DNA of 63,805 nucleotides, filler included, from Octopus bimaculoides (taxonomy: Eukaryota), in the NCBI RefSeq assembly GCF_001194135.2. It is 5 parts of 5 records of this genome, joined end to end, with 100 filler letters (N's around TTAATTAATTAA, not from the genome) between each part and the next. Parts side by side here need not be neighbours in the genome. Positions count along the whole stretch, not along the records: positions 1 to 18,298 come from NC_068986.1; positions 18,399 to 38,220 come from NC_068992.1; positions 38,321 to 50,552 come from NC_068984.1; positions 50,653 to 60,861 come from NC_068998.1; positions 60,962 to 63,805 come from NC_069006.1. One strand, written 5' to 3'. Positions within the stretch are counted from its first letter, which is position 1. Each line of letters starts with the position of its first letter. Under the pieces are notes generated by a model. It saw only the letters and a list, made by a program, of their open reading frames with translations, had not been told where the DNA came from and did no database searches. Position numbers and translations under genes: made by a program. This document shows, piece by piece, positions 3,395 through 61,124 of this stretch.

Positions 3395-3443
3395 TACACA
3401 CGGACTCGAGTTTCTGGGTGGTTACCCCTCCTCAGCGTGTGTT
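3395..3443 (-). ncRNA. Minimal type I hammerhead ribozyme motif, core intact
   Basis: Minus strand: acacacg CTGAGGA gggg taacca ccc a GAAA c tcga GTC^cgtgtgt; 7-bp stem I, GUC triplet, palindromic TCGA loop. Confidence 0.8.
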
Positions 3444-3554
3444 AATCACCAGCTGCTGATGACAACTCATTCTACTTGCAAAATACTATAGGTTTTTTCC
3501 AGCGGTAAACTATGCATGTATGTGTGCGTGTGTGTGTGCGTGTGTGTGTTTGTG

Positions 3555-3785
3555 TGTGTCCTTGTATCTTTGTTTGTCCCTCGCCACCACTAAACAAACA
3601 TTTTAAGTTTGCTCTCCTCCCCGTAACTTAGTGGTTCATTAAACGTCCAATACAATAAGTGCCAAACTTAAAACAAAACAACAAAAACACTGGAGTCGAT
3701 TCATTTGACTAAACGTTCTTCAATGCGATGCTCCAGCATGGCTGCAGTTCAAGGAGGGGAATAAATAAAAGATAAAAGATAAAAG
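3555..3785 (+). mobile_element. SINE 3' portion (family ending in ctccagcatggc...taaaagataaaag)
   Basis: Similar to copies at 22960-23140, 46240-46430, 50420-50545 and 52810-53000. Confidence 0.65.
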
Positions 3786-3900
3786 ACTGATATAGAAGCC
3801 GGTCTCAGGTAAGCTTTCATGCGAAAACGCCGTAACCTACAGCCTCAATTCTACTTCGATTCCTTCGTATATATCTTATTTTTTTTTTTTTACATTTCAG

Positions 3901-4043
3901 AAATGGATCAAGTTGACTGGAATAACCCACCGAAATGCTACGATGAACGCAATGGAAAACGACAACATGATGTAGGAATGCAATGCATCCAACCCTCTGA
4001 ACGGTTGGGTTTCCAGCACTTCAACCTTTTCTGCCATCAGTAG
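3901..4043 (+). CDS. Candidate coding exon (E)MDQVDWNNPPKCYDERNGKRQHDVGMQCIQPSERLGFQHFNLFCHQ*, identity unknown
   Basis: Strong acceptor (T-rich tract then acatttcag at 3899-3900); repeat-free ORF; AATAAA at 4184-4189; HDVGMQC loosely resembles an SRCR domain end. Confidence 0.3.
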
Positions 4044-4725
4044 ATGGTGATTTTCGTATAGGTCGAATATTAAACAACAGTATTTCAAATATCTGGACGG
4101 GCGTTCCATCAGGAATCTTTGAAAAGCAATGTTTAATTTCCTATAGAGGTGCTTGTTTACTGCTAGTATATTGGATTTTATTCAATAAAGTCCTCTTGCA
4201 TACAGGCATGATTCAGTTCAATAAGATATTGAAGTGGAAATATATTTCTAATATATCTGCTATGCTTTTTATGTGTTTCTCATGACCATTATTGATATAG
4301 ATGATATAACGTATCTAAAACGTCAAACTAGAATTGCTTTAGAGTTACACTTCATTACAATCATAAGTCTACACGTCAGCCAACTATAGTTACGTAACAT
4401 CTACAATAATAATCATAGCTATGATCATCTCGATCAAAAGAACGAAGTGTACAATGCCTTTATAGTAACAAATACAATGCATACATGCGTACATATGTGT
4501 GTGTATATATATCTATGCGTAAAATGTATATGTATAAACATATATACATGTGGTGTGTGGATTTCCAGCTAGACCGTTGGGTCATTTCCTGCAGAAAGTT
4601 TCGAATCGAAGCAAATGAAGAAAGTGACCAAGGAGGTAAAAATGTCGGCCAAACTCTCTTCAGTGTAGTTATAATGGTGAAAAGAATGCAGGCAGACGCT
4701 AACTGCCTCTACGTATTTGTATGAC

Positions 4726-4769
<44 letters not shown>

Positions 4770-5269
4770 GGACGAGCTCTCTACCCTGTCAATTTGCAAC
4801 ACCGGCTTTCCGGTGACTTTAGCTGAGGAAGAAATAACAATTCAGAAAATGCATGCATGCGACAGACTGGATAAGGAGAGCTAGAAGCTGAGTCAGTGTG
4901 TTTACACATGTGTTTGTCCCCAGAGATAAATTTTCTCCTTGACAAAATACATGGAATTATGTCAGCATATTTGAACTGGTGACAAGTTTGTATTCATATA
5001 GCTACACCCCCCCCACACACACACATTAATAAAATATATACATACACTATTAGATATGTACATATATAACAAAGTGTACTACATGAGTATCTACATCGCT
5101 AAAAAATAGAAGTCGAAAAATACTTCTGCACGACCGAAGAGTCACAAACCTATTACAGACATGATAAGGAAAAAATATCAGTGAACAATAATAATGTCTT
5201 ACCTCTACTGGGTCAGAACAAGTAAATGCTGGTCAACTTGGTACTGGTTTCGAAATTTAGCGCCATACA

Positions 5270-5319
<50 letters not shown>

Positions 5320-5338
5320 CATACACACNNNNNNNNNN

Positions 5339-5387
<49 letters not shown>

Positions 5388-6078: not shown

Positions 6079-6130
6079 CTAGAACTCGAGTTTCGGACTT
6101 TCCAGAAGATGTTTGTCCTCTTCAGTTAGG
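6079..6130 (-). ncRNA. Minimal type I hammerhead ribozyme motif
   Basis: Minus strand: cctaa CTGAAGA ggac [16 nt] gtcc GAAA c tcga GTT^ctag; perfect 4-bp stem II, weak stem I. Confidence 0.65.
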
Positions 6131-6398
6131 ATCACTAACTAGGTACCTGTTAGTGCATGTTTTCACCCATGTGTGTTAAGTACAACATTGGAGCATTTTA
6201 GCTGTAATTTCTAGCAAGTTAGGAGTTTCTTGACTCCCTAGTCACATTTAGTGACAGTTGTAATTCTTCTTTTGGGTAAAACGTTTCAATCTCCTGTTTA
6301 TAACAACAACACACATACACAAACATATATTTGTTGCTAAAACGCCGACATCTGTCGTCAAGCGATGGTTGGGGACAAACGCTGGCACACACACACCA

Positions 6399-6451
<53 letters not shown>

Positions 6452-9617: not shown

Positions 9618-9938
9618 AGTGTTTTGTACTATAGGCACAAGGCCTGAAATTTGGGGAGAAGGGACTAATCGATTTCATCAACCACAGTATTTCCCTTAAT
9701 TTATCGACCCCAAAAGGATGAAAGGCAATAATAAATGTCATCTACTTTTTCATTATGCTTTAAAAAAATTGATAAAATTCCTCGTGTAGGTCTCAATGAG
9801 CGCCAGGTAAGTGACTATTGGATGACTGAGATATGTTGTGTTCGCTCGAGTTTGTATTACCTGGTATCAATTATCTACTATTTTTCACTTATTTCAGTCA
9901 TTAGACTTTGGTTATGGTGGGGAAACTATTCTGCACAC

Positions 9939-10020
9939 GGATGTATGGCCTAGTGGTTAAGAGCGCGGGCTACTAACTCCAAGATTCCGAGTTCGATTCC
10001 AGGCAGTGACCTGAATAATC
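9939..10020 (+). mobile_element. Short tRNA-derived SINE head
   Basis: A box TGGCCTAGTGG, B box GAGTTCGATTCC; anticodon and acceptor stems do not close. Confidence 0.6.
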
Positions 10021-10516
10021 ATTTTATTATTTACATTATTTACAATATTTACAACAAACACGATGAGGACAAATATCCGTCAAATTTAAATAATGTAAAT
10101 AATGTACATAATTCCGCATCTCTTAAATACAGAACTGCATCATTGAAGAGTTGTTATTAACAAGAGAGAAAAAAAAATCCCAGTAATTACTTTACAGGGT
10201 AGGAGCACTAATCAGTGATATGTATAAATGCAATGTTATTACCAGTTCAAATATGCTTATGGCACATACGAACTCGTAAGAAAACCATTGTTATGGGCAA
10301 AATTTATCGCAATAGACAATTGGTGTAAATACAGCGCCACCGATTCAAGCTGTAAGATGCAAGCATTTCGAAGTCGTTATCTCCTCTTCATTAACAGATC
10401 CGTAATTTATTTATTGTGAGTCACCGATTTGCGCTACTACTCATCAAACGATGACTGGAATAGCATGAGAGTGACAATCTCACTCATTAGCCATAAGCAC
10501 CACCTGTCCAGTTTTT

Positions 10517-10556
10517 GTTACTGAAGAGGCGATAACCACTCCGAAATACAGTCTAG
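10517..10556 (+). ncRNA. Degenerate hammerhead ribozyme motif
   Basis: gtta CTGAAGA gg [11 nt] cc GAAA taca GTC^tag; core intact, stems weak. Confidence 0.45.
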
Positions 10557-12831
10557 GTAGGTGGCGCAGTGAGTTGATTTCGGTGCATTTACACAATGTT
10601 TCTACAGTGAAAATTTTCTCCATGATATAAACATAGTGAATGCCTTCCTTACGAGTTCAGACGTGTTACAAGCATATTTGAACTGGGAATAACGTGGCAG
10701 TAACTATTATGTGTTCAAGCCTGGTACTTATTCTGTCTTCCTCTTTTGCTGAACCGCTAACTTATGGGGACGCGATTATAACAGTACCGGTTGTGGAAGA
10801 CAGACGCGCGCACACGCACAAACACACACAGATATAAAAACGACAGTCTTCTTTCAGTTGCCGTCGACCAACTCCACTCACAAGACTATAGAAGAAACTT
10901 GCTAAGTTTCCATCTCGCAGTGAGATTGAAAGCCGTATCATGTGGTTGGGAAGCAAGCTTCTTACCACATAGCCACACATAGGCCTATCATGTTGAAAAT
11001 GAACAGATACATGCCTTGTAAAACATCTACTTTCACCACTTCTATTCCACAATGATTATATGATACAGCTCAAACAATATACTCAGTAATACTTTTTTAT
11101 GACATATTTGCTTGCCTCATTTTAATTCACGATAGTCATGTTGTAGGGCGATAGATAAATAGGTCATCTGTAGCCCTTTTCGGTCTTATTCTTCATATAA
11201 AGATTTAATTAAATATTTGTCCTCAATTAATTAGGAGGCTGTTGATGAGATTCACTAAAGGATAGTGAAGTATGTTAAATAATTACTCACAAACGATTTC
11301 AAGGATACCAGCTCTAGGCATCAAGCTGTTTCCCAATTATTTTCAGTACAAGTTTAATATCCGATGCTGTACATTTTGGAGAGATATTTCTCATATATCA
11401 ATGCTGCTTTTGAGTGTTATTCTAGGCAGTTATGACTTTTGATATATCCGTTTTGAAATATGGTTTTCAAATAAACTTCTACATTTTCTAAAATAATGTA
11501 GTCTTATCTTTTTTTGCTTGGCGATTCCCCTCTCTGTAATGTTCGTAGTTTTTCTTTAGGAATTAGTTTGAGAGAATGTTGCTACCTCACATTATATGCT
11601 TTCAATCTAATATTTGTGGCATATAGTGATATGTTAAGCATTGAAGGGCTTGAAGCCATGTTTACGCATCCTTTCTGTTATGCTTATTTCTCCGAATCTA
11701 TTATTCTTCATTCTGCCGTGTTGTATTTGCTACGCTAGATAGAGATTATATTCTATATTTTAGTTTTCCCTTCGAATCATATACAATATATTATTGACTT
11801 ATCGTTTGCAACGTTAAAATGTTTACCTAAGACCTCATCTCCCAGTTGCTGTGAGAATGCGTTCTTAAAGGAAATCATTTAATTCATTTTACATCACTTC
11901 ATATCAATATGTTATAATGTCGGATATATCCTTGCGTATTGCCTATTGGACATTTAATATGGTTTGGTAATTCAGAGATGCTTTTCCTAAGGTCTATCTG
12001 TTATACTTTAGGGTTATTGTGATCTGTTCGATAGGCCCGAAGTGGAGATTGAAACTTCACTCCATTAATCACAGGTATATACATAAAATATTTAGAGCCG
12101 GAGAAAAATCACTGCGGTAACTAATATCTACAGCTATTCATACCAAGGCTAAAATGCACGAAAATCTGAATGCTGGCCAAATATCATATTGATTTTAAAG
12201 CCTTAAACATTGAAAACATAGAAAAAAGAAACAAATCTATAACCTGCTTTGTACCTCTACAAATATTATGATTCTAGGAACGGTAATTATTGACAAAGTT
12301 ACCATAAAATAAAAGATACAGAGCGTAAGCCTTTATTCGCAAAAGTAAATAATAAAGAGAAAACAAGAGTATGAAACATTGAAATAAATTATAATGGAAT
12401 ATATATACATATACATATACATGAATATACATGCATATCTATACATACAATCATATATATATATATATATATATANNNNNNNNNNNNNNNNNNNNNNNNN
12501 NNNNNNNNNNNNNNNNNNNNNNNNNNNNNNNNNNNNNNNNNNNNNNNNNNNNNNNNNNNNNNNNNNNNNNNNNNNNNNNNNNNNNNNNNNNNNNNNNNNN
12601 NNNNNNNNNNNNNNNNNNNNNNNNNNNNNNNNNNNNNNNNNNNNNNNNNNNNNNNNNNNNNNNNNNNNNNNNNNNNNNNNNNNNNNNNNNNNNNNNNNNN
12701 NNNNNNNNNNNNNNNNNNNNNNNNNNNNNNNNNNNNNNNNNNNNNNNNNNNNNNNNNNNNNNNNNNNNNNNNNNNNNNNNNNNNNNNNNNNNNNNNNNNN
12801 NNNNNNNNNNNNTATATATATATATATGTAT

Positions 12832-13598: not shown

Positions 13599-13795
13599 GT
13601 GTAATTTGAGGGTAAAAAACTTTTTAACCCTCACCCATTCATAACATACAGTAGTGTAATTGCCATACAAATAAAAAATAACACTTGTGTATTAATAACT
13701 GGGTTTTATACCAGCAGTATATTGGATAGAAATTATCCCTTAGTTGGTTGAATTAACAACATCTAACTCTTTTGGAATAATTATATATATATATA

Positions 13796-14227
13796 TAAAT
13801 GAAACATTCAAACACTAAGATCTGAAGTTAGATGTTACTACTGTTCATATCATCTGTGGATAAATTATAACTTTGATGATATCACCAGTAGTGACATGGG
13901 TGGATCGCAGTTATAATACTTTTAAATAGCTATGAATTATAAATTTACACGAAGCGTAATGATGCTTAACAAGAGCTAGAAATAAGAGCTAAGTCTTAAA
14001 TTAATCCACCGTAGCGCACCAATATAGGAAAGAAAAACAGTATGCGAAGAAAACAGAAAGACTTAAAACATTTAACAGCACAAATAAATTCATAGCTATT
14101 TAAAGCTATTATAACTGCGATCCACCCATGTCACTACTGGTGATATCATCAAATTTAGAATTTATCCAAAGATGATATGAACAGTAGTAACATCTAACTT
14201 CAAATCTCAGTGTTTGAATGTCATTTA
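13796..14227. repeat. Inverted repeat (about 145-bp arms, 13796-13940 and 14084-14227), foldback/MITE-like
   Basis: Arms align with over 90% identity by eye. Confidence 0.9.
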
Positions 14228-15896
14228 TGCAATTTTATGCACCATGTGCTCTGTTTTTGGCGCAAAACAAAACCAGTTGCACAGACAGAGACTAACTTGA
14301 ACAGTCACGGATTTAAACTGGTAGTCCACACTGACGTGGGTCAGGGTTAAATGCTTAAAAGCAGAAACCTGGTTTGTGAATATCCCTAATTGCGTAATAT
14401 TTTTCTTTGTACTGTTAAATGTTTTAATTCTTTCTGTTTTCCGCGCATACTGTTTTTCTCTNNNNNNNNNNGCACATGCGCAAAGGTCTGCCTGTTTTAT
14501 GTTGGAATGTGTATGTGTGTGCATGTGTGTGTGTGTGTGTGTGGCGAAAGTGGAATACTGAAATAGGGTATGAGAAGAGAATGTGTGAGAGTAGGAATAC
14601 ACAACCGTCAGGAATGTGATTAAAAAAAACGTTTACTGAGAGAATTGAAACGTTGCAGAACTTATACAGAAAATCCATTTTCGAATGTCATAGCACAGCT
14701 GGTTTCGCGTTGATGCGTATAAGCAAAGACTTATGAAGTCCGAATTTACTTTTCAGTCGTGTACATAGAAGTCTATGAGAATATTTGATTTACTTCAAGT
14801 TCGGAAAAATATATTAAAATTATGAAATAAGGTATCATATATGACCAATATAGTCAGGAATAGGACAACTAATTTATTTTTTAGCATATATAAGTATATA
14901 TACATATACATGCATATATATANNNNNNNNNNNNNNNNNNNNNNNNNNNNNNNNNNNNNNNNNNNNNNNNNNNNNNNNNNNNNNNNNNNNNNNNNNNNNN
15001 NNNNNNNNNNNNNNNNNNNNNNNNNNNNNNNNNNNNNNNNNNNNNNNNNNNNNNNNNNNNNNNNNNNNNNNNNNNNNNNNNNNNNNNNNNNNNNNNNNNN
15101 NNNNNNNNNNNNNNNNNNNNNNNNNNNNNNNNNNNNNNNNNNNNNNNNNNNNNNNNNNNNNNNNNNNNNNNNNNNNNNNNNNNNNNNNNNNNNNNNNNNN
15201 NNNNNNNNNNNNNNNNNNNNNNNNNNNNNNNNNNNNNNNNNNNNNNNNNNNNNNNNNNNNNNNNNNNNNNNNNNNNNNNNNNNNNNNNNNNNNNNNNNNN
15301 NNNNNNNNNNNNNNNNNNNNNNNNNNNNNNNNNNNNNNNNNNNNNNNNNNNNNNNNNNNNNNNNNNNNNNNNNNNNNNNNNNNNNNNNNNNNNNNNNNNN
15401 NNNNNNNNNNNNNNNNNNNNNNNNNNNNNNNNNNNNNNNNNNNNNNNNNNNNNNNNNNNNNNNNNNNNNNNNNNNNNNNNNNNNNNNNNNNNNNNNNNNN
15501 NNNNNNNNNNNNNNNNNNNNNNNNNNNNNNNNNNNNNNNNNNNNNNNNNNNNNNNNNNNNNNNNNNNNNNNNNNNNNNNNNNNNNNNNNNNNNNNNNNNN
15601 NNNNNNNNNNNNNNNNNNNNNNNNNNNNNNNNNNNNNNNNNNNNNNNNNNNNNNNNNNNNNNNNNNNNNNNNNNNNNNNNNNNNNNNNNNNNNNNNNNNN
15701 NNNNNNNNNNNNNNNNNNNNNNNNNNNNNNNNNNNNNNNNNNNNNNNNNNNNNNNNNNNNNNNNNNNNNNNNNNNNNNNNNNNNNNNNNNNNNNNNNNNN
15801 NNNNNNNNNNNNNNNNNNNNNNNNNNNNNNNNNNNNNNNNNNNNNNNNNNNNNNNNNNNNNNNNNNNNNNNNNNNNNNNNNNNNNNNNNNNNNNNN

Positions 15897-17603: not shown

Positions 17604-18476
17604 GTGTGTGCGCGCACATGCGTGAGTGTGTGATGACTGGAAGCTAATATTTATAAAAGAAGTACCTGGAAATAAGGAAATATTAATTCTTCAGTCTCAC
17701 TTGGTTGTGTCGCAGAATTAATAGATGGATGTATTGACCATTTCCCCATCAATATTAAAAGAACCAAACATAATTTGCCCTAGTTAAATATAACAAACTA
17801 AAATGAAAATATATATGCAGCGAATTAAAATATTATGATAGAAGGCACGTGAAGAGAGAAAAGATACAAGGTATGAGAATGTATAAAACGATCATTACTT
17901 ACGGCATCAAGCGAATGAGATTTCTAATTTACAACAGCGAAATAGAACGAAATATATTTGTAGTGTTTAAATGTAAACCCCGATCACAAAAATACGACTG
18001 ACCGTCTCTCGTCACTGGACTGAGACGCTTGTTCTTTTAACATCGAGAACTTAAGTTTATTGTTATTTAATTTGATGATTGCATTTACTGCAACCAAATG
18101 CAAGTAACTGAACAAAGAATCAATGTTCTCAATAAATAAAATTGAAAATAAATGCAAGCGTGGCTGCGTGGTAAGAAGCATCCTTCCCAACCACATGGTT
18201 CCAGGTGCAATCTCTTTGAGTAGTACCTTCGGCAAGTGTCTTCTACATGAGCCGATCTAGTTAGCGGAAACTGATAGAAGACAGTTTCATATATATATNN
18301 NNNNNNNNNNNNNNNNNNNNNNNNNNNNNNNNNNNNNNNNNNTTAATTAATTAANNNNNNNNNNNNNNNNNNNNNNNNNNNNNNNNNNNNNNNNNNNNTA
18401 TATATACATACATAATATATACATATATATATATGTTTGTATATATATATATACATACATACATATATATATATAA

Positions 18477-23330: not shown

Positions 23331-23544
23331 AATTATGAATATCGAAGTATCACCTTTATATATAGGGGTTTTAACATTAAATTCGATATCAGCAACTTAA
23401 ATCTCGGTAATCAAAGTCAGTCTGGTTTCCATCAATAAATATTTACGCACGAAAGTGAAATATTGTTTAGCAAAGACGTTGTAACACAGTGGTCACAAAC
23501 AAAGGATACGATATTTTAGGCACTGAGCAATCCCTCTCTTAACA

Positions 23545-24005
23545 CTGTATGCATAGTGGGAATTGAAGTTGAGGTATCGTCCAGTAAAGGTCGACTCGCG
23601 GTATACGGATGTCCTGAATCCATACTTGGTGCGTGTCATTAATACGTCCAAGAATGCCTGAGAACTGTAGGAATGGCTTTATTGAGTTCACACGATCTAA
23701 CAGCACTTGGACATCTTCTTGGTGGGGCCAGGCCAGAGTATAAAGGTGTCATCAACATATCGTAGCCATAATGTTGGTTTTAGTGGTGTTGATCCTAAAG
23801 CCAAATTCTTACACTATTCCATATATATATTGGCTATTAGCGATGATAATGGCGAACCCATAGCTAAACCCTCCTCCTGTCGATATATATCAGTGTCGAT
23901 TCTGAAGTAGGTAGTTTCTACACAGAAGGTCAACATTTCCATTGAACTTCTTATTGGTATACTAGTGCGTTCTTTTAGATGGGTGTTGACACTAGTTTTG
24001 CTTGT
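23545..24005 (-). mobile_element. Penelope-like element reverse transcriptase fragment
   Basis: TTYFRIDTDIYRQEEGLAMGSPLSSLIANIYME; KPTLWLRYVDDTFILW; FLDVL; SVYRESTFTGRYLNFNSH, all PLE-type RT/thumb motifs. Confidence 0.85.
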
Positions 24006-24009: not shown

Positions 24010-25190
24010 CTGATACTGCTTCACCAGTTGGGACTTTGAAGCTGTCAACACTTGGGCGGTTTTACTACTTAGATATGGAGCAGAGGTAATCGCATGCATA
24101 ATAGTCGAACTAAACAACTTAGACAGAAAGGCAAGGAAGTTGCTGACTAGATATGGGATATTCCACCCAAAATGTGGCACAGACAAGAAAAGAGGACTCA
24201 TTGGATGCGAACACAGCATTAGAGCAGAAGAGAACAACATAGCATGGTATGTAAAAACATTCCACAGAACCGCTATTATTGGAAGAAGTAAGAAAGTAGG
24301 ATGGACGATTGCAAAGGTAAAGTGCCGTATAAGCCCTTGAGAATGAATGAAACTGAAAATAGTTGGATAAAGACTAGAATGCATGCACAATTTCATAGGG
24401 ATCTTGAAGATAAGACAGGCAAAGAAAAAACATGGCTATAGATAATTAAAGTGATTTAAAACCGGAAACGGAGGATGTAATATATGCTGCCCAAGAGCAA
24501 GCATTAAGAAGCAATTATATCAAATACAGAATAGTCAACACATCAGAAAGTTATAAGTGCAGAAATTGTGAACAAAATGGTGAAACGGTATGGCATATTA
24601 CCAGTCAGTGTACGCCACTAGCCCAGAAGAAATATAAGAGACGTCACGACAATATAGCAAGGCTTGTCCGTTGGACTCAACAGAGCAAAAAATGTGGTAC
24701 GAGCTTAAACCCGAACTCATCATCAAAAATGATAATGCAAAGATCCTATGGGATTTTATGATACAGTGCGACCATGGGATAGAGAATAGGAAACCAAATA
24801 TTGTGTTAATTGAGAAAGTACGCAAACTATGCTGGATCATAGATATAGCATGCCCAGCTGACAACAAATTATGCTATAAGGAAGAAAGAAAATTCGATAG
24901 ATATAACAGGTTAGCTTGGGGGTTAAGCAGTTGTGGTCGCTGAAAAATGTGGTAATTGTACCACTAATTGTCAGAACCCTGGTGAGTAAAAATCTTGAGA
25001 AGTACATGGAAGAAATAGGGGTCGCAATGAAGGTGAAGCGCTTGCAGAAAACAGCACTACTTGGAACCGATCGAATACTCTGGATGGTGCTCGAAAATTA
25101 AGGTGTCTTACCTTAGTTCACTGGTAGTGAACAGCTGACACCGTAGGACATCTTCAGCGTTAGAAGTTGTGCAAATACAATAAAAGGATA
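24010..25190 (+). mobile_element. R4/Dong-like (restriction-like endonuclease) LINE, 3' part
   Basis: CCHC knuckle KCRNCEQNGETVWHITSQC; KILWDFMIQCDHGIENRKPNIVLIEK..IIDIACPAD; LQKTALLGT; 3' UTR and A-rich tail. Confidence 0.85.
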
Positions 25191-25204
25191 ATTATCTTTT
25201 CTAA

Positions 25205-27875: not shown

Positions 27876-27900
27876 GTTATTATTATTATTATTATTATTA

Positions 27901-27956
<56 letters not shown>
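27876..27956. repeat. (TTA)n tract, the minus-strand (TAA)n tail of the adjacent LINE
   Basis: Direct read. Confidence 0.9.
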
Positions 27957-28195
27957 GCCTTTGCACAGCTAACGCTGGAGATGTACTACGGTGTCTCGTG
28001 TTCACTACCAGTGAACTAAGGTAACACCTCATATTTTTCGAGCAACTTCCGGAGTATTCAAGCGGTTCCAAACAGTGCTGTTTTCTGCAAGTGTACCTCC
28101 CTTATTGCAGCCTCTATTTGTTGGACGTGCTTCTCGAGATGTTTTTTCTCACTGATCCCAGGGCTCACACAATTATCGGTACTACTGCTACCTTT
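27957..28195 (-). mobile_element. R4/Dong-like LINE 3' end
   Basis: LQKTALFGT and 3' UTR ttaccttagttcactggtagtgaac shared with 25100-25170 and 32742-32820. Confidence 0.85.
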
Positions 28196-28199
28196 TCCT

Positions 28200-32655: not shown

Positions 32656-32723
<68 letters not shown>

Positions 32724-32741
32724 CATTATTATTATTATTAC

Positions 32742-37790: not shown

Positions 37791-38447
37791 TGTCGAGGAA
37801 GGAAAAAAAGAGGCAGACGGTGAGAAAGGAATGAGTGGTGAGACTTAACTGAGATAGTTAACTTTTATCACTGGATGCTCTTTGAGAACTCTCGTCACTG
37901 GATGGTCTGTGACCGAAGCGAGACATCAGTATTATTATTATTATTATTATTATGTTGTTGTTGTTTTTTCTTCTTTCTTCAAATTTTCTTCCATTTCTCG
38001 CCGAGTGTTTTCCGTACACCTAGGGCAGAGAAACACGTTGCATGCATTCCCAGTTTACACATGCAAATTCACAGGTAAAACATGTATTTAAGAAAAAAAA
38101 AAATCATGAATGGATGTTGTTTTCACAGCGATAATGCTCTTCTCAGTACATGAGTCGTTCCAGTTAGCACGATTTTTTGCACTTCCTGTAGGGATGGTAA
38201 GCCTGGTATCATTTTCAAATNNNNNNNNNNNNNNNNNNNNNNNNNNNNNNNNNNNNNNNNNNNNTTAATTAATTAANNNNNNNNNNNNNNNNNNNNNNNN
38301 NNNNNNNNNNNNNNNNNNNNATCTTCGTTAAAATACCGCTTCCTTCAAATCTTCCACCGGTTCTGTTGCCTAATTCCATCGATGTTATTGGATTAGATAT
38401 GTTTTTGTATAGGGAGCCCGGTGTAGCACATCCATGTTGTTATTCAG

Positions 38448-40727: not shown

Positions 40728-41029
40728 ACACCAAACATTAAGGCAAGACAAACATCTCAAGGACTTATGGACTAACATCTACACTATCGGAAAGCTGAAC
40801 TGTGGACTTTTATGCTTTTTTCTTCTTTTTCTTCATTTCTTTATTCCTTTTCTCCTGTCCTCTGTCATCGTTTCATTAATCTGTACCCTTCACATTTTCC
40901 CTATTTGTCTCCGATGACGGAATATCCCATATTTTGTGTTATCCCAGAAACAGTTGTAAGACTTTGAATTTTTCCGATAATAATAACGTATATGACTTGA
41001 GGTGTTTGTCTTGCCTCAATGTTTGTTGT
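40728..41029. mobile_element. Small element with about 34-bp terminal inverted repeats
   Basis: aaacattaaggcaagacaaacatctcaag (40733-40761) versus cttgaggtgtttgtcttgcctcaatgttt (40996-41024). Confidence 0.75.
40907..40962 (+). ncRNA. Minimal type I hammerhead-like motif (U4 replaced by C)
   Basis: gtct CCGATGA cgga..tccc a GAAAC agtt GTA^agac; 4-bp stem I, 2-bp stem III. Confidence 0.55.
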
Positions 41030-42447: not shown

Positions 42448-42999
42448 CCGCGCGCGCTTATATTGTGTTAAATTTAAATGTGCTGCAGATTGTGATATTT
42501 ATTTTACTACGTAACTGGTAACTTGACGTCAATTGTTCAATGGTGAACACATATTTTGAGAAGTATATTAGTTGACTTGAACTCAAGGTCCATAGGATTG
42601 GTCCATCCAGTTATCGGGCTGTTGCTGATACATTCCGGTGTTGGCACGTGGGGGAGCATCCATAACTAATCTTTGACCGCTACTACCATGTTGATAACTC
42701 TGCAAAAGACATGTTAAACATATACATATATAGAGAGAGAGACATATATATTTATATAAATAAGGATTAGATCGTTATTTAAAATACCGATCCTATCAGG
42801 AGGCCAGCATGGGAATAAAAACCTCAAAAGGTAATAACTATTATTAGAATTATAATTAAGGGTATCTAAGAGATACCACCGTGCTTGAAATAGCAGCCAA
42901 AACTTGACTCTAAAACCACATTAAATGTTCCTACAGCACCAGGAGAAAAGACAAAAAGACAAAATAAACTAGCAAAAAAAAAAAAAAAAATACTAGATA

Positions 43000-43058
43000 A
43001 TTCCAGATCCCGGATTTCTGGCTCTGCATAAGAAATGTTCTGCCTTCATCAGTGGAAT
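43000..43058 (-). ncRNA. Type I hammerhead-like motif in the left palindrome arm
   Basis: attcca CTGATGA a ggc..gcc a GAAA tccggga TC^tggaat; 6-bp stem I. Confidence 0.6.
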
Positions 43059-43206
43059 ATACTCAGATAGCACATAAATACAGATATAAATATATACAAC
43101 ATACGAATACTTACATATAGGTGCATATATATGTATGTATACGTTCGTATATGTAAGTATTCGTATGTTGTATATATATATCTGTATTTATGTGCTATCT
43201 GAGTAT

Positions 43207-43265
43207 ATTCCACTGATGAAGGCAGAGCATTTCTTATGCAGAGCCAGAAATTTGGGATGTGGAAT
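43207..43265 (+). ncRNA. Mirror hammerhead-like motif in the right arm, cleavage site mutated
   Basis: attcca CTGATGA aggc..gcca GAAA tttggga TG tggaat; G at position 17. Confidence 0.45.
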
Positions 43266-43417
43266 TATCGAGTAATTTTTTTTTTTTTTGCTACTTTATT
43301 TTGTCTTTTTGTCTTCCCTCCTGGTGCTGTATGAACATTTAATGTGATTTTAGAGTCAAGTTTTGGGTGCTATTTCAAGCATGGTGGTATCTCTTAGATA
43401 CCCTTAATTATAATTTA

Positions 43418-43495
<78 letters not shown>

Positions 43496-43547: not shown

Positions 43548-43589
43548 TACATATATATTTGTATTTATTTTTATGAATATTTAGGAGAA

Positions 43590-45900
43590 GGAACAGAATG
43601 ACTCTAGGGTCGAGAGTTTCGTGCGTTTCCTATATTTGTATTTACTCTCAGCCCTTCAGTGCCTCCGACGCCATCAAGATATCTTTATCAAAACGACTGA
43701 CAAAGGTGGAGCTGTTGAGGCCCAAATATTCTCTCAGTTCACCGGTCACAATCCCGAGCCATACGGTCATTACATTGACAACTGTATCAGCGCGACCTTA
43801 TTCTCCGCAAACAACTCGACTCCTTCCTCTCTTGAATTTCCCACCCTTGAATTTTCCTGATCTGTCTCCAACACTTTTATCAACTTCCACCACTCTCTTA
43901 CCACTTCCATCTACTATAAACCCACAGACTCATACACTTATCTCAAGTTATTCTCCTCCCATCCTACCCATACCAATCTGTCCATACCTTACTCTCAGCT
44001 CTTTTGTCTCCGTCGACTCTGTAATGACGACCATGACTTTAGGACACATTCCCAACTCATGGTTCGCCATTTCACCGAATGAGTATAGCCCACCAACGTC
44101 ATCCAAATAGCCCTCACCTGTGCCGATCTGTTGACCGTGCATCCACTCTTTCTCCCGCACCTTCCCCACTCTTATCCACCTCCCTTTTCCTATAATTTCC
44201 CACCACTCAACCCTACTCCTCCAACAGACCGTTTTAAGTGCTTTATGCTAATTCCTTTCTAATCCCTCCATCTTCCAAATCTTCTTCAACCCAACCTTCC
44301 TCTCCTTGAAACACGCCTGTAACCTATATGACCTTCAGGTCTGCAGCTGCTTTCCCACTCCAGGTACTCAAAGTACTCACCGGCACCTATCATCTCCCCT
44401 ACCACATCACCGACTCATTCACCTGCACCTTCAGCAATTTAGTCAACTGCATCCTCTGCTATCTATCTTTCACTTTTTTCTCTCTCTGTCTCTTTCTCTC
44501 TCTCTCTCCCTCTCTCTCTCTCCCCCTCTCTCTCTCTCTCTCTCTCTTTCTCCCCCCTCTCTCTCTCTCTCTCTCTCTGTAACTCTCTGTACATTGGTCA
44601 ACTGTACAACTGGCCAGCGTTTGGCTGACCGGTTTGCCGAACATCTTCGGGAAATTAGACACGGTGATGACATCCCAGTTTCGCGCCACTTCCACTCGAC
44701 TGACCATTCCCTGCAACATCTGCCTGTGTTCGGACGAGCCTCACACAGAGGCCACCCGTACTTCCACCTCCGTCGTAAGTAGAATTTCATTTTATCTCCA
44801 TTTCTCAATTTTTCATTGTCTCAGCTTCATCTCTGTTCATCTAAACACGCTTCTACACACATTTACACATCACATACCTTCCACATTCCACTACTCCACC
44901 TCGTCTTCCCCCACACACACCTCTTTACACAATTTACATACACCGCACAAACCATTATTCTCTTACAGCATATACATACAGCTGCACACACGCACGCTCC
45001 TTCTTCACACACACGGGCACCCACACTCTCATTACCTTATCCTCACGCATAGTAACATGCATATAGTCACACCCTACACCTCCCAACTCCTGCCGCATCT
45101 GCCACCCTTACTCTACCGGACACATCCAGAATACTCACACACATACTAACTCCATACAGAAACACTCTATCCAACAGACCCATATACAAGCCAACTGAAA
45201 ACAGAAACATACACACGCGCTCACATGCATGCAAACACGCATAAACACACACAATATTCACGTATAAACACATAATATATATACACACAATAGCATCACA
45301 CACACATGTGCCTGCACACATACATCTGAAAGCCTCAAATACACACAATTGATAGCCTTACACGTCATACGTTAGACAGCCTCATAAACGCTTCCACACA
45401 CACGCGCACACACACACACATAAACACACGGAGTACACACGCACTTATCGCTTCACACACACGTACAAGTTCGCACGCACACACACACACATGCAAACAC
45501 GCGCATACATATACATATATACGCTCACATAATCTTTATACTCGTTCACATGCTTGCCAACTACACATACGCGCTCGCCCATACACACATATGCTCACGC
45601 ACGAATTATCCTCATATACAAACATATGCTTGCGTACACACATACTTTAGCTCGGTCACAGTTGTTTCCCTTGCCAACCACACTTCCTACCATTTCCTTC
45701 CTTCCAGTTAATTCAACATGAAGCACCGTTTATTCAGACACGTATTTTCCTCTCAATTTCTCCTCTCTCCGTCTGTTTTCTCTCCGCATTCTTTTCTGTA
45801 GAAGAGCATAGGCTCGAAACATCTAAAGAATTCTTCCATTTTTCCTGGGCGTCAAAATAATACAACCTGTTTCATGTTCTTCTATCTGTCTCTGTTTTTT
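43590..45900 (+). mobile_element. Penelope-like element remnant: RT, GIY-YIG endonuclease and terminal repeat
   Basis: IKTTDKGGAV; degenerate YIDD motif (YIDNCISAT); FTCTFSNLVNCILC..TGQRLADRFAEHLREIR..PVSRHF; (TC)n inserted in the endonuclease region. Confidence 0.8.
45788..45831 (+). ncRNA. Degenerate hammerhead motif at the PLE 3' end
   Basis: attctttt CTGTAGA a gagc atag gctc GAAA ca TC^taaagaat; A6 replaced by U, 7-bp stem I after one mismatch. Confidence 0.5.
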
Positions 45901-46032
45901 GTATATTTTTTTGTATATTCTTGAACCATATATAAATATATATACATGTGGTCCATATATACGCACACTCACGCAGTTACAGATAAGGAGCTATCATTAA
46001 ATAAAGTCATAAGACGATAAGACAATCTTGTT

Positions 46033-50420: not shown

Positions 50421-50686
50421 GAATAAGTACAAGGCTTACAAAGAATAAGTCATGGGGTCGATTTGTTCGATTAAAGGCGGTGCCCTAGCATGGCATGGCC
50501 GTAGTCAAATGACTGAAACAAGTAAAAGAGTAAAAAAAAAAGAGTATATATANNNNNNNNNNNNNNNNNNNNNNNNNNNNNNNNNNNNNNNNNNNNTTAA
50601 TTAATTAANNNNNNNNNNNNNNNNNNNNNNNNNNNNNNNNNNNNNNNNNNNNTATAAAAATAAAACTACTGAACAATAATAAAAAT

Positions 50687-50945
50687 AATTCCTATCATAG
50701 TAGGTGCCTTAGGTATAATAAAAAAATATTCAGACAAATACATAACAAAAACACCAGGACTTACAAATATATATAACATACAGAAAATTGCACTACTGGG
50801 CACTGCACACATCCTACGCAAAACACTTTCAATACAGTAACCATAAGAGCATCACAGCAAACCACAGCACATACCCAAGGCACACAGAGCTGCGCTCGGT
50901 AGTGAAGTGAAAGCACGTTATAAAAATAAAACTACTGAATAATAA
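50687..50945 (+). mobile_element. R4/Dong-like LINE 3' end, preceded by the tail of another copy
   Basis: PIIVGALGIIKK..NIQKIALLGTAHILRKTLSIQ*, 3' UTR, (AAT)n tail. Confidence 0.85.
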
Positions 50946-51163
50946 TAATAACAACACATTCCACTTGATGCACACAGCCTGAAATTTGAGAGAATGCTTA
51001 GTTGATTATATTGATTGAGCCCAGTGTGGTACTTATTTTATCAACTCCAAAAGGATGAAAGGCAAAGTCAACCTGGGAAGAACTTGGACTCAAAACAAAA
51101 AGACAAACAAAATGATTAACAACATATTGTCTGGCATGCTAATGGATCTACCAGCTTGCTGCT

Positions 51164-51225: not shown

Positions 51226-51447
51226 GGTGGTAGTGGTGGTTCTAATTTAGACACAAGGCCAACAATTTTGAGAAGGGTGTTGATACCATTAACCCCACTA
51301 TTTGACAGCTACTTTATTTCATTAAACCTTGAAGGATAAAAAACAAAGTTGAGATTCAAATTCTTTCTGAGTTCAAATCACGCTGAAGTCAACTCTGATT
51401 CGAAGTAAGTACTATTGTTATTATTATTATCATTATTATTATTGTTG

Positions 51448-51848
51448 TTCAGTAGTTTTATTTTTATAACGTGCTTTCACTTCACTACCGAGCGCAGCTC
51501 TGTGTGCCTTGGGTCTGTGCTGTGATTTGCTGTGATGCTCTTATGGTTACTGTATTGAAAGTGTTTTGTGTAGAATGTGTGCAGTGCCCAGTAGTGCAAT
51601 TTTCTGTATGTTATATATATTTGTAAGTCCTGGTGTTTTTGTTATGTATTTGTCTGAATATTTTTTTACTATACCTAAGGCACCTACTATGATAGGAATT
51701 GTTTCTGTTTTTAGATTCCACATTCGAGTTACCTCTATTTCTAGGTCTTTGTAGTTTGAAAGTTTTTCCATTTCTTTTAGGGAAACGTTGTCATCTGCTG
51801 GTATTGATACATCAATTAGAAAGCATTTTTTTTCTTCATGATCTTTGA

Positions 51849-51850
<2 letters not shown>
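51448..51850 (-). mobile_element. R4/Dong-like LINE 3' end, inverted relative to 50687-50945
   Basis: FLIDVSIPADDNVSLKEMEKLSNYKDLEIEVTRMW..IPIIVGALG. Confidence 0.85.
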
Positions 51851-51887
<37 letters not shown>

Positions 51888-52809
51888 CATTATTATTATT
51901 ATAGTTTCAAACATTTCCAAAAAGAGATAAATTTTAGGGGATAGTATAATCAATAAATTCAATTCAAGAATTTGATGATGTTTATTTATTCAATCTCATA
52001 CCCTAGTAAGATTTGAACTCAGAAAATAAAAGTACACAACTAAATATTACAAAGAATTTAGTCCAAGGCTATATCATTTCCACTGTCTGCTGCCAGTATC
52101 ATAACAGTATTTATCATATGAGAATCATTATATTATATATTATTGTATATTGTATTATTGATCAGTGATAATAACACATGAAATTATGAGATACACTCAT
52201 AAACAATATGCAGATAAGTAATAAAGAAAGGTAAGTGGACAGACAGACATGAGTGATCAATACACACATCTACATAAAAACACAAACACATCAGTATGCA
52301 CAAATGTACATACTTGTATGCATACATAAAACCACACATGTACACACACACCTACGTATAGAGGCTACAAAGCAAATAATGGTAATACCTATCTTTAGCA
52401 TTCAATAAACTTTCCATGCCTTTATTTACACACTTGCAATGCAATTAAAATATGTAAAGAGTTTCGTAGGCTGACATCTGAGAATACAAATTGCTTTTAT
52501 AGATATCAATAATTTGTATACTGATATACATCTATACATCTATACATACACACACACATATCTCAGAGAATAATTTCTTTTCCGTATTAAAGATAGGGTG
52601 ACACAAAGCGCTTGTTTTGATGAAATGGAACTATCCAGAACTAGCTAAAAATTATTCACTGCTTATCAACCATGTTATTTCTATTGACTGCAACTTTCTG
52701 ATGCATATATACAACAGAAAATAGCATAGTGGTTAAGTAAGTTAAGCTTACTAGCTTCATAATGTGTTGTGGAGATAAACTGAGTAACAGGTATACATTC
52801 TTGTCCATT

Positions 52810-57232: not shown

Positions 57233-58639
57233 TGTATATATATCAATAACATTGTGTTTATGAATGTGTTTATATGTATTTATGCATTTTTATGTGTGTG
57301 TGTGTACACAAACATTGTGAATGTAGGAATATATGTTTATATCTACAAAAGTGTATGTATGTATATGCATGTATATATGCAAGCATTGGGGGGGGGGGAG
57401 GCGCACGTTAGTGCATGTCTGTGTAGATGTATGTTTATATAAGGTATGATTACATGTGTTTTTGTATTCATATATTTATATGTGTATATGACAGACAGAA
57501 GGGGAGAGAGGGAGAGGGGGGGAGAGAAAGAGACAGACAGATGGACGGACGGATAGACAGAGAAGGAATCAGAGTATGTGTGAGAAGAAGCAGCAGCAAC
57601 AGGCCGCAATAGCCACCCTTCCACCAACACTATTGATAACCTCCCCACTACAATTATTGACTTGTTTGTGTTGGCAGAAAATCTAAAATATCTTCAGAAA
57701 GAGGAAGGAAAACAAAGATGTGACATTTTTATGCCTTTCTTAAGGGATAATAGTAACAATGTAAAGTGTATAAAAAAAGGAGTACAATTGCTGCAATCTC
57801 TCCCTACTCTGCTTGCAATTGAAAGCCATGGCAACATCACCAGCTCTCCAATCCCTGTGACCATCCCATCCAGGAAAATTCGCAGGAGAGGTGACTGGCC
57901 ACAACTCAACAAACGTTTTGACACATGATTGATGAATTATAGCTTTTAAGTATCTTGAATGCCCATTGGGTATCAACAAACATAGTGAGAGTATGTGGGT
58001 GGGTGTGAGGAAGAAAGGAGAGAGACTGTTTCTACTATGATTTATTGTATTCTTCGTGTCCACATACCCCCACAGCAGCCAAAACTATCAGTTTAGTGGG
58101 GGGAGGGAGAAACTATTTACTTAACCTATACATTTTATTCAAGAGGGTTTAACCAATGTTTTATATTTTTTATCTTTTACTTGTTTCAGTCATTGGACTT
58201 GGGGCATGATAGGGTGGGTGGAGATGTTGAGGCACTGCATTGAAGGTTTTGTTTTAGTCAAACTTGGTACTCATACTATTGATCTCTTTTGCAGAACTGC
58301 TTAGTTACAAGAACATAAAGAAATCACCCCAGTTGTCAAGTAGTAGTGGATGACAATCACACACACAACATTTTTCTCGAACTCTTTAGTATTCAGATTT
58401 CTTCTGTTAAATCATCATCATCATTTAACGGCCATTGTCTATGCTGGCATGAATTGGATGGGCTGACATGCTGTACCAGACTCTAGTCTCATTTGGCACA
58501 GTTTTCTATGGTTGGATACCCTTCCTAAAACCAACCACTCTGAGACTGTAAAATCAAATTCTCTGTTAGAATGAATTTTTTGTTAGTTGTGCCTTGATAA
58601 TGATAATGACTGCATGAAGCTTTTATATCATACCACAGT

Positions 58640-59340
58640 ACAATAGTTATCAAAGGGTAACTGTGTTGTTCATTTTCTTGAACTTGTTTGATACAATAGC
58701 GGATTTTTTTCAGAATACTTCACTAACCACTTCTCTGATTGTTTCAAAATGTGATACCTTTTCCTGAGTGACATCTTCGCCAAACTAAATGATCTCAGTA
58801 TGTTATTGCATGGGAATCAAAAAACATTTGTCGATTCTAAATCGTCCATTACTGCCTGCATTTCTAAATTAGCACTATATAAGATGAACATTTCAAGATG
58901 TCAATACCACCAGTTTCAATGATTTAATAGCTTGAAAGATGAATTGGTTGAAGACAATATCATTACATATTGCGATTATTTACAATCATTGTATGATGAC
59001 ATGGTACAGCGATTTCAGGATATTATCACATTGCCTGTTCCAGTTGGTTATAACAGCCTGTTTGAAGTCCAAGTAATTGATTGCAAAGATGATGTGCAGG
59101 AAGAATTGTTAGATTTATTATGCAGTATTGGCTTCTCAGTAAATATGGCTTGTGATATCATCAAAGTATAATGACATCCCTATCTACAGAAGCACTTGAA
59201 GTTGATTTTGTTTGCCTTCCCAATGTCCTACTTGGTAGAAGCTGGATTCGGCCATATTAATACCTTGTTATCTAGAGGTGGATATAATCAAGTGAGGTGA
59301 CTTGTGGTTAAAAAGTAACTAATTTTAAACCAAATGTATC
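58640..59340 (+). mobile_element. hAT (Charlie-type) transposase C-terminal remnant
   Basis: LSDIFAKLNDLSMLLHG; YLQSLYDDMVQRFQDI; FPMSYLVEAGF. Confidence 0.75.
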
Positions 59341-59386
59341 TGCACTGGCTGCATCACACCAGACACAGGGGTCACACTGATGATAC

Positions 59387-59429
<43 letters not shown>

Positions 59430-59629
59430 GTCAATTCAATAAACGAATTAAAAAAATGTATTTTAAAAAACGGATGAGAGGACATGCACAAAAAATGTAT
59501 TAGCTTGACATTCAGTGAAAGTAGTGAGTTTGATGTTTTGAGCATAGCTCTTTGTTGGAAAGGAGAAAGGGAAAAGTTCAAAGATGGAAAAGAAATCACT
59601 AAAGACAGTGTTGCTATATAAAAAAAGCT

Positions 59630-59955
59630 AGTGCTGGTGCCACATAAAAAGCACTAGTAATGGCACCATGTAAAATGCACTGGTAATAGTACCATGTAAA
59701 AAGCACTGGCAATGGTGCCATGTAAAAAGCACTGGTGATGGTGCCATGTAAAAAGCACTGGTGATGGTGCCATGTAAAAAGCACCCACTACACTCTGTAA
59801 AGTGGTTGGTATTAAAAACGACATCCAGTCATAGAAACCATGCTAAAACAGTCTATATGGAACCTGGTGCAGCTCCTGGACTTGCTACCTCCTGTCAAAC
59901 TGCCCAACCAATATCAGCATGGAAAACAGATATGAAATGGTGATAATGATGATGA
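59630..59955 (+). mobile_element. SINE-like repeat with about six tandem 27-bp units (gtgccatgtaaaaagcactggtgatg)
   Basis: Direct read; same family as 56925-57180. Confidence 0.75.
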
Positions 59956-60001
59956 TATTATTTACACTGGACAGATAGGTGTCCTCACTAAAATTCCACC
60001 A

Positions 60002-60046
60002 GGACACCTGATGAAGGCTGGAGAGTAAATCAGCTGAAACATTGTG
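60002..60046 (+). ncRNA. Degenerate hammerhead-like motif enclosed by a 15-bp stem
   Basis: ggacac CTGATGA a ggctg [10 nt] cagct GAAA cattgtg; stem III degraded. Confidence 0.45.
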
Positions 60047-61124
60047 GTAACAACAAACAAGGTGAGGACACCTATCCATCCAATGTAAATAATGTACATA
60101 ATTCTTCATCTCTAAAATATAGAACAATGATGATGATATTAGTGTGGGATAAAAGTCATGTACAGAATACATTCAATACATTGAGGAATTGTCAAAGACA
60201 TGCTTCAAACACACACACACACAACTTGGACATTTACACTTTACTGTATCTAACAGTTGGTTAGTTCTTACAGGTTATAATAGAAGTGTCCAATTTTCAA
60301 TAATTTTTTTTTTTATTCTATTCCCTATCTTCCACAAATTCTTGCTGGAATTGAAAAAGGGCATTTTGTTTGTTTTTCTTTCACTCTCTCTCTCTCTCCC
60401 TCTCTCTCCCTCTCCCCCCTCTCTCTCTCTTGAGACTTCTTTGTGTGAGACACACATATACATATGAGCATATCCACTTATATGTTAATGTACATCTATG
60501 CATGTGTGTGTGTGTGTATGCATGCATGCATTTATGTCAGCATGTGTACATTAGTGTATGCATGTGTGCAGGTATGACTATCTGTGTGTGTGTGTGTGTG
60601 TGTCTGCTGTATAAATGATGTCTCTACATACATGTTAACGTATGCCTATACATGTATGTGTGTATGCATGTGCATGTGAGTAAGTGTGCATGCTTATATT
60701 AGTGTTTGCATGTGTGAATGTATGACTATATCTGTGTTCGTGAGTATGCAGTTATATGTATGATACATAAATATGTGCATACGTGCATGTTAACGTATGT
60801 CTATACACGTATGCGTATGCATATATGTGTGTGTGTGTGCACTTGTATATTAGTGTTTGTANNNNNNNNNNNNNNNNNNNNNNNNNNNNNNNNNNNNNNN
60901 NNNNNTTAATTAATTAANNNNNNNNNNNNNNNNNNNNNNNNNNNNNNNNNNNNNNNNNNNNTTTTCTACTGTAATTTTCTGCATTTTCGTGCAGCTGAAG
61001 ATTGCTCTTCATATTGCATTTAATGTAATGCTCGCATTACTTAAATAAATTGGAGTAGCATGAAACGTGCGTACTGCAATCACCTTTGAAATCCGTGTTG
61101 CTTATTTTTTTTATTTTGATCACC

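Follow-up and report, generated by a model that had tools for sequence, protein, structure and literature searches.

Hammerhead ribozyme motifs in a 64-kb stretch of the Octopus bimaculoides genome as probable remnants of Penelope-like elements

Results

Hammerhead motifs in the window

The DNA analyzed here (the window) is a stretch of 63,805 nucleotides (nt) from the genome assembly of Octopus bimaculoides (GCF_001194135.2), composed of five parts joined end to end. A young retroelement fragment of the window gave 16 protein matches, of which the one from a named organism was from O. bimaculoides (89% identity over 74% of the query). The window is AT-rich animal DNA, rich in microsatellites, gaps, and decayed repeats, and it contains a series of motifs resembling the hammerhead ribozyme, several of which lie in fold-back (inverted) repeats. 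These motifs, the repeats that carry them, and their probable relationship to Penelope-like elements (PLE) are the subject of this study. A preliminary description had reported eight motifs, and all eight were found where it had placed them, with the first base of the core at 3435(−), 6125(−), 10521(+), 40911(+), 43052(−), 43213(+), 45796(+), and 60008(+). A ninth, with a core reading AUGAAGA, had been missed and lies at 10391(−). Motif density in the window is ~1 per 7 kb. Hammerhead numbering is used throughout, and G is not known to be accepted at the cut position.

Although CUGAnGA had been given as the core of all eight motifs, it is exact in six, and the other two each carry a single change, 40911 reading CCGAUGA (U4C) and 45796 reading CUGUAGA (A6U). 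The comparison with shuffled sequence that had been proposed was made within the window, using 300 local dinucleotide shuffles and a descriptor composed after the motifs had been seen (CUGAnGA, an optional base, a stem II closed by G-C, an optional base, and GAAA). This exact-core tier gave six matches, where the shuffles averaged 0.11 and never exceeded 2, and the reversed window contained one. The six comprise five of the motifs listed above and a site at 4823 without stem I; 60008 is absent because its stem II is closed by a G-U pair. When up to one core change was allowed and at least four of six stem I pairs were demanded, there were eight matches against a mean of 0.67 and a maximum of 3, and none in the reversed window. 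Seven of these eight are the described motifs or their partners and one is a doubtful site at 61012, whereas 6125 and 60008 are excluded. Counting the twin motifs of the 43-kb repeat (see below) once still leaves five exact-core matches and, with the 10-kb pair also counted once, six in the one-change tier. A stricter, earlier descriptor had given 2 matches against 0.07 (a count reached by 0 of 100 shuffles) and 4 against 0.82 (reached by 1 of 100).

It is hardly credible that the motifs are explained by chance matches. The observed counts were reached by none of the 300 shuffles at any of six tiers, and the damaged motifs occupy the expected place within repeat units. On the other hand, when one core change is allowed, shuffles yield up to 8 matches to core plus stem II and the reversed window yields 6, and a lone damaged motif such as 45796 or 40911 could by itself be fortuitous. 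As a group, the hammerhead motifs are real and far above chance. The sites at 4823, 22235, and 61012, together with other matches, were rejected for lacking stem I or lying in low-complexity DNA; five of the 20 matches in the loosest tier come from one ATG microsatellite.

An Rfam scan had also been proposed beforehand. No hammerhead appears among 150 of the 157 matches for the whole window, and the short stretch around the 60-kb motif has no hammerhead match either. Short stretches chosen afterwards did yield matches to RF00163, at 3397-3441 (20.8 bits, E 0.007) and 6079-6129 (17.7 bits, E 0.074), both below the gathering score of 34. Rfam also lists microRNAs in the window, all of which are hairpins formed by microsatellites and score below the gathering level. 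When metagenomes were scanned with a 20-base motif, 11 loci were returned and rejected as chance matches (≤35 nt, no hammerhead flanks), and a viral scan returned 0 matches.

Anatomy of the ribozymes

All hammerhead features are kept in two of the eight motifs (3435 and 43052), and the other six lack an intact core base, stem, or cut site. The palindromic stem III of the preliminary description is perfect in 3435 and 6125 and near-perfect in three more motifs, but it is broken in the remaining three. In six of the eight, one base is unpaired between positions 9 and 10.1. Seven have a G10.1-C11.1 pair, which in four of them requires that an extra A be admitted before GAAA, and 60008 has G-U at this place. 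This extra A between stem II and GAAA is found in three families (3435, 40911, and 43052/43213).

The intact type I hammerhead at 3435 (3389-3450, minus strand) is solo, with no inverted arm found. Its stem I has seven Watson-Crick pairs and five more past a bulge, its stem II has 4 bp over a G-A mismatch, and its stem III is the palindrome ACUCGAGU, with a predicted cut after the C at 3403. The surrounding 174-nt stretch folds barely better than shuffles (z −1.8, 6/200). The type I motif at 6125 (6079-6129, minus strand), likewise solo, has a canonical core, a 4-bp stem II, and a stem III palindrome identical to that of 3435. Its stem I is damaged, with a mismatched closing pair and three of six pairs. 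No alignment was obtained between the flanks of 6125 and those of 3435, and an inverted match upstream of 6125 is weak (score 23), at chance level, and was discarded. Directly upstream of this motif, at 6140-6162, there is a near-perfect 23-nt palindrome, which resembles the palindromes reported at the 5′ ends of the pseudo-long terminal repeats (pLTR) of PLE in an account by Arkhipova et al. (2013, PMC3846280).

The remaining motifs are associated with larger repeats. The motif at 10521 has an exact core, a mismatch in stem II, a broken stem III, and a weak stem I, and 40911 combines its changed core with a 4-bp stem I. In 43052, core, stems, palindrome (a 9-nt near-palindromic stem III), and cut site are kept, and the predicted cut falls after the C at 43006. 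When its twin 43213 is read in the register of 43052, a G falls at the cut position, and a second register without stem III also fits. In 45796, a 4-bp stem II is accompanied by a stem I of seven pairs beyond a mismatched closing pair, and in 60008 stems I and III are both broken.

Head-to-head repeat units

The motifs had been described as not being copies of one repeat. This is correct in that several families are present, but 43052 and 43213 are the two arms of a single repeat (91% identity over 300 columns), so that the eight motifs represent at most seven families. The motifs at 10391 and 10521 are head-to-head partners as well (63% over 255 columns). Five of the eight motifs, rather than the four originally counted, therefore sit in inverted units. 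All four inverted hammerhead units have the same layout, head to head with 3′ ends outward and arms of unequal length.

The 60-kb unit is a complete small insertion (59945-60141, plus strand), as it displays a perfect 16-bp target duplication (59945-59960 and 60126-60141), both arms, and a one-sided tail. Its 30-nt inverted arm (59961-59990) faces a long arm that carries 60008 and runs to 60125, extending 32-36 nt beyond the end of the short arm as a tail (60094-60125). The unit thus spans 59961-60125, not 59974-60076 as initially delimited. A second, shorter copy of this family, without a hammerhead, lies at 10026-10135 (plus strand), with a short arm at 10026-10044 and a long arm at 10051-10135. 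It has both ends in common with the 60-kb copy, including a 32-nt tail that ends on the same base, and its fold point lies ~60 nt further downstream, past the ribozyme.

The old pair at 10 kb consists of a left arm on the minus strand with the dead motif 10391 (10190-10396), in which 10190-10228 is a likely, if weak, tail of ~39 nt, and a right arm on the plus strand with 10521 (10516-10697), recognized by aligning the two arms. A candidate 9-bp target duplication (10181-10189 and 10698-10706, one mismatch) is weak. For the interval 9650-10780, no RNA data set was listed, a result that has no bearing on expression. The 40.9-kb unit (40728-41029, plus strand) has a short inverted arm (40728-40761), the outer end of which is interrupted by a 10-N gap, and a long arm with 40911, the right end of which is not fixed. 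At the other seven sites examined for units of the hammerhead families, target duplication is weak or unreadable in TA repeats; the flanks of the fold-back insertions are AT-rich. An inverted, truncated arm of variable length is common to the four hammerhead units and the 10026 copy. Miniature inverted-repeat transposable elements (MITE) or Foldback DNA elements would show fixed terminal inverted repeats of equal length and a common internal junction, a pattern not followed by the 43- and 60-kb families, in which arms are of unequal length and junctions differ. With such unequal arms, and with fold points that shift from copy to copy, the hammerhead units are not fixed terminal repeats.

The 43-kb family

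In the 43-kb fold-back, alignment and reads define a left, long arm on the minus strand (42769-43118) with the intact motif 43052, and a right, tail-less arm on the plus strand (43119-43418) with 43213, ending in a TA microsatellite. The unit thus extends left to at least 42769, beyond its first delimitation. We aligned two RNA runs (~6% of each) and two sets of DNA contigs to 42500-43150 at 80% likeness. In the contig sets, depth over the unique flank was 40.5 and 9.8, and the summed depth of the family peaks at ~6500 and ~6000 times that of the flank over the 3′ part and reaches ~1900 and ~1200 times over the ribozyme, ratios that are rough and not true copy numbers. The family is thus present at, roughly, thousands of copies.

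The right arm stops at the equivalent of 42848, whereas family sequence begins at least 79 nt beyond, at or before 42769, so that the one-sided tail (42769-42847) measures 79 nt or more. Its true end on the outer side falls between 42714 and 42769, the read alignment having skipped 42714-42766. Contigs (35 and 32) also terminate at 42848, where they are flanked by AT-rich sequences unlike one another, and since the family nevertheless runs to 42769, there are two 3′ ends. Other copies have inverted arms that stop at 42876, 42901, 42940, and 42949, not at 43118. Among 15 of the 22 joints, there are four internal deletions, five joints of the fold-back type, each at a different point, and two that lead to 43119 on the opposite strand and may be head-to-tail junctions; one further fold-back joint was found in RNA reads. 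Four joints to 43149-43150 were dropped as artifacts of the end of the aligned stretch. Six joints restart at 43115-43119, where the right arm of the 43-kb locus itself starts, with 0-18 letters in between. Among 40 of the 80 sequence differences, none changes the core or stem II, and other copies, as seen in loose ends, keep the flanks of stem III and vary its center base.

RNA reads on the family (328 and 351) map to both strands and are mostly less than 90% alike, and therefore come from other copies. The library looks unstranded, because family reads and host-exon reads both occur on two strands. In the two runs, the 43006 cut site shows no accumulation of RNA ends, but depth there is low and the site borders a masked repeat. 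As RNA, the fold-back is predicted to form a 290-bp hairpin (−424 kcal/mol), within which stems I and II of 43052 have a pairing probability of 0.00, as against 0.3 and 0.66 when the ribozyme is folded alone. The genomic hammerhead copies are likely inert, judging from the damage to six of the eight and from the predicted locking of 43052 in this hairpin.

The fold-back adjoins what is likely the last coding exon of a host gene (42583-42699, minus strand), as indicated by spliced reads, an acceptor, and an open frame. In run X22, 37 RNA reads leave the locus at 42699 with one common sequence, and the minus strand there has a splice acceptor followed by a 38-codon frame to a stop. The upstream partner exon was not found within the window, and the intron may be longer than 21 kb or the partner may fall within a gap. 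Since the exon splices at 42699, the fold-back is likely intronic, ~70 nt inside the intron. Lying this close to the acceptor, the near-perfect 290-bp hairpin (42769-43418) is a candidate substrate for adenosine-to-inosine editing.

A decayed PLE gene upstream of 45796

A decayed, internally deleted PLE gene, identified by translation, relatives, tblastn, and profile, lies at 43648-44755 on the plus strand. Translation of 43550-44850 reveals a DKG motif, a YIDD-like motif, a thumb, and then a GIY-YIG region, although the gene is broken by stops and frameshifts and the GIY-YIG region is split by a CT microsatellite. A 73-residue piece used in a HMMER library search found 1745 relatives with E up to 0.001. 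When nine long relatives were scanned, five contained RVT_1 and GIY-YIG, one RVT_1 only, one GIY-YIG only, and two neither. When aligned to the window, the relatives cover 43648-44196 and 44609-44755 (E 3e-25 and 9e-8 by tblastn; profile of 33 relatives, E 2e-39 and 1e-6), indicating that ~200 residues of the reverse transcriptase (RT) are deleted. A word-based protein search with the thumb fragment gave no match, and Pfam did not recognize the decayed PLE pieces of the window.

On the strand of the gene, and ~1 kb downstream of the endonuclease, lie the motif 45796 and the likely 3′ end of this PLE copy (45789-45927, plus strand). The motif is 130 nt ahead of a TATA flank, the position expected for the hammerhead of a 3′ pLTR, and we infer that gene and motif are continuous across the CA-rich kilobase between them. 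Upstream, ~90 nt (43559-43647) separate a TA flank from the DKG motif and fall outside the protein profile; their 61% match to the 45.8-kb 3′ end is of low complexity and unconvincing. A second decayed fragment of a PLE RT, at 23454-23966 on the minus strand, is further removed from the search set than is the gene at 43.6 kb, and no hammerhead was found beside it.

Other inverted repeats

Fold-backs in the window are not confined to hammerhead-bearing repeats. Two (13795-14228 and 63504-63805, with arms 94 and 71% identical) lie beside TA microsatellites, have no hammerhead that we could find, and could be PLE families without a ribozyme. Inverted pairs of non-LTR elements (which lack long terminal repeats) with restriction-like endonuclease ends, which we take to be R4/Dong-like, are formed by 50675-50954 with 51433-51906 (arms 96% identical), by 24307-25195 with 32722-33638, and at 27877-28196, and adjoin (ATT)n tracts. 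A 154-nt inverted duplication of a retroelement fragment (30040-30193 and 31192-31345, 99%) has a left copy leading into nine telomere-like CCTAAC repeats (30255-30307). The 100-nt gaps at 18299-18398, 38221-38320, 50553-50652, and 60862-60961, each consisting of two 44-N runs and a 12-base spacer, appear as false inverted repeats in the repeat finder.

Discussion

We consider it probable that the motifs (at least nine, mostly damaged) are remnants of the 3′ terminal repeats (pLTR) of about seven PLE families, and that the fold-backs are by-products of insertion. The preliminary description had proposed a diverse set of PLE derivatives forming an undescribed fold-back class with inverted terminal repeats. 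Its first half holds up to a point, PLE being the likely source of the type I motifs in several families, on the basis of the gene upstream of 45796 and of the architecture of the units. The second half is not supported, as arms are unequal, fold points vary, and the geometry has been published for PLE. The outcome that it had itself named as contrary to its proposal, namely that the elements are PLE terminal repeats, applies directly to 45796 and, by architecture, to the 60- and 43-kb families.

According to Craig et al. (2021, PMC8557442), an inverted 5′-truncated copy often adjoins the pLTR in PLE, and a 30-40-bp tail is often present on one side only. The units described here resemble endonuclease-bearing PLE, as portrayed there and by Arkhipova et al. 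(PMC3846280), in the inverted, 5′-truncated head-to-head copy, the tail at one end, the target duplication, the microsatellite or AT-rich targets, and the possibility of a long spacer between gene and 3′ pLTR. They differ from them in that the window contains no full tandem pLTR-gene-pLTR copy with direct pLTR, and the 60-kb duplication is 16 bp rather than the 8-10 bp of the rotifer examples. As for the ribozymes, minimal hammerheads number in the thousands per genome in the account of Cervera and De la Pena (2014, PMC4209133), where they are heterogeneous and mostly solo and where pairs on opposite strands, 100-700 bp apart, are reported as well. The octopus motifs share with these a type I topology, the unpaired 9/10.1 base, a tiny stem III that is palindromic or nearly so in five of the eight, many unrelated families per genome, mostly solo copies, and opposite-strand pairs at such distances. 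Unlike the motifs in that account, as far as it was available to us, three families (3435, 40911, and 43052/43213) have the extra A before GAAA, the 43-kb stem III is a 9-nt near-palindrome, and most copies in the window are damaged.

A mechanism may be sketched by analogy with PAc, a Poseidon PLE of Anolis (Frangieh et al. 2024, PMC11167929). Its protein is described as cutting and extending both strands at AT-rich sites, copying begins at two sites within the RNA that delimit the tail, and ribozyme cleavage is not required in vitro, a scheme shown in vitro and for PAc only. By this analogy, an octopus PLE protein would cut both strands of AT-rich DNA and copy RNA from two nearby internal sites, one strand giving the tailed arm and the other the tail-less arm. 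Both copies would stop early, and the two truncated copies would join head to head. The hammerhead, being near the 3′ end of the copied RNA, would be carried along. In a live element it may cut tandem transcripts as a dimer held together by its palindromic stem III, as proposed for such motifs (PMC4209133 and the review PMC6765202). Two recurrent 3′ ends per family and AT-rich targets, both seen here, are what two internal start sites of the PAc type predict, and the lack of RNA ends at the ribozyme cut site, where depth is low, is another likeness. In contrast to PAc, relatives of the 43.6-kb gene have a cysteine-rich linker between RT and endonuclease, and, judged by what PMC8557442 describes, this gene appears to be Neptune/Nematis-like. 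Another way of arriving at head-to-head copies, self-priming on an antisense template, has also been suggested (PMC3846280).

Several observations weigh against a PLE origin for all of the motifs. Of the seven families, one is tied to a PLE gene in the window, and a profile search of the window found no PLE protein signal beside the other motifs; the six other families are too short to contain a gene. Even the link between the gene and 45796 spans ~1 kb of low-complexity DNA and is accompanied only by a weak TA-rich duplication. At 79 nt or more, the tail of the 43-kb family has about double the published length of 30-40 bp. No compensatory stem change or covariation is visible in the 43-kb differences considered above. 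The six joints restarting at 43115-43119 hint at a preferred 5′ start, which as a fixed end is no more than hinted at because many reads also continue upstream at this point. Finally, 3435 and 6125 lack an inverted arm, tail, or clear duplication and are closer to canonical type I ribozymes.

This last point raises the question whether 3435 and 6125 are solo monomers of non-LTR retrozymes rather than PLE ends, an explanation that we regard as possible, though on the doubtful side. Metazoan non-LTR retrozymes (Cervera and De la Pena 2020, PMC7229834; bioRxiv 10.64898/2026.07.22.740005) are short non-coding repeats with type I hammerheads, as are the repeats of the window, and monomers are common according to the latter work. 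Both octopus motifs resemble their canonical ribozymes, with a 2-bp stem III and a palindromic tetraloop, and the RF00163 alignment covers 45 (3435) and 41 (6125) of the 45 model positions. The long bulged stem I of 3435 forms within its flanks (pairing 0.6-0.9), although the 174-nt stretch folds only slightly better than shuffles and both RF00163 scores are below threshold. PLE hammerheads with a small palindromic helix III have been described too (PMC4209133). Retrozymes, moreover, are tandem (PMC7229834). No tandem unit surrounds 3435 or 6125, no period above 26 occurs among 43 tandem repeats found in the window at score 80, which leaves no array of 150-450 bp, and the inverted units are head to head, not head to tail. 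The original proposal, in which fold-back retrozymes bounded by genuine inverted terminal repeats would move as complete hairpins, would account for the five of eight motifs inside inverted units. We find it very improbable in view of the unequal arms, the fold points differing between copies, and the one-sided tail. In addition, the ribozyme is predicted to be unfolded inside the hairpin, other repeats in the window form fold-backs without hammerheads, and the geometry is in print for PLE (PMC8557442, PMC4209133, and PMC3846280).

It is also conceivable, but unlikely, that PLE are parasitized by some of the families, foremost by that at 43 kb. Such parasites would be short and non-coding, with their own promoter and a defined 5′ start, and, being copied in trans by a PLE enzyme, would insert with an identical geometry, head to head and with one tail. 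Non-autonomous PLE derivatives have been described (PMC8557442; bioRxiv 10.64898/2026.07.22.740005), and the 43-kb arm has a long tail, a T run, and no frame. The restarting joints fit such a start, as do loose ends at 43117, which share upstream sequence with a TATA-like motif (20 and 19 RNA reads; nine contigs). Loose ends do occur, however, at 43107 (152 and 85 RNA reads), and the aligned stretch (to 43150) has no sense sequence upstream of ~43117, so that upstream starts appear only as loose ends. The same picture would be expected from a promoter-bearing pLTR, and the 3′-biased depth fits truncation of a longer RNA. In its most specific form, this explanation would make the 43-kb family a non-coding parasite of PLE, ~375 nt long, possessing a promoter and a favored 5′ start of its own, a tail of unusual length, and a hammerhead variant in which the extra A before GAAA gives stem II an N-A closing mismatch, spread to thousands of head-to-head fold-backs and leaving long intronic double-stranded RNA beside host exons. 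We think it rather improbable that all of this is true together. Overall, we favor 3′ pLTR remnants of PLE as the origin of the motifs. Notable loose points are the length of the tail in the 43-kb family and the start that this family may prefer, the extra A seen in three families, and the canonical-looking solo motifs 3435 and 6125.

The fold-back architecture is an insertion pattern of PLE already described between 2013 and 2021, to which octopus families are now added. PLE are abundant in octopus genomes according to earlier reports (PMC13282606 and PMC8967140), and the families of the window are probably uncatalogued for their ribozymes. In the literature that we searched, we found no description of PLE hammerheads in cephalopods, and the extra-A variant or these families may already be on record elsewhere; the nearest cephalopod record is a count of 235 Rfam hammerhead loci in the giant squid. 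The units presented here illustrate that PLE stubs can pass for small inverted-repeat elements. Two 3′ ends per family offer many natural checks of the model of two start sites. If a density of ~1 motif per 7 kb is typical, the Octopus genome would be a rich source of natural hammerhead variants.

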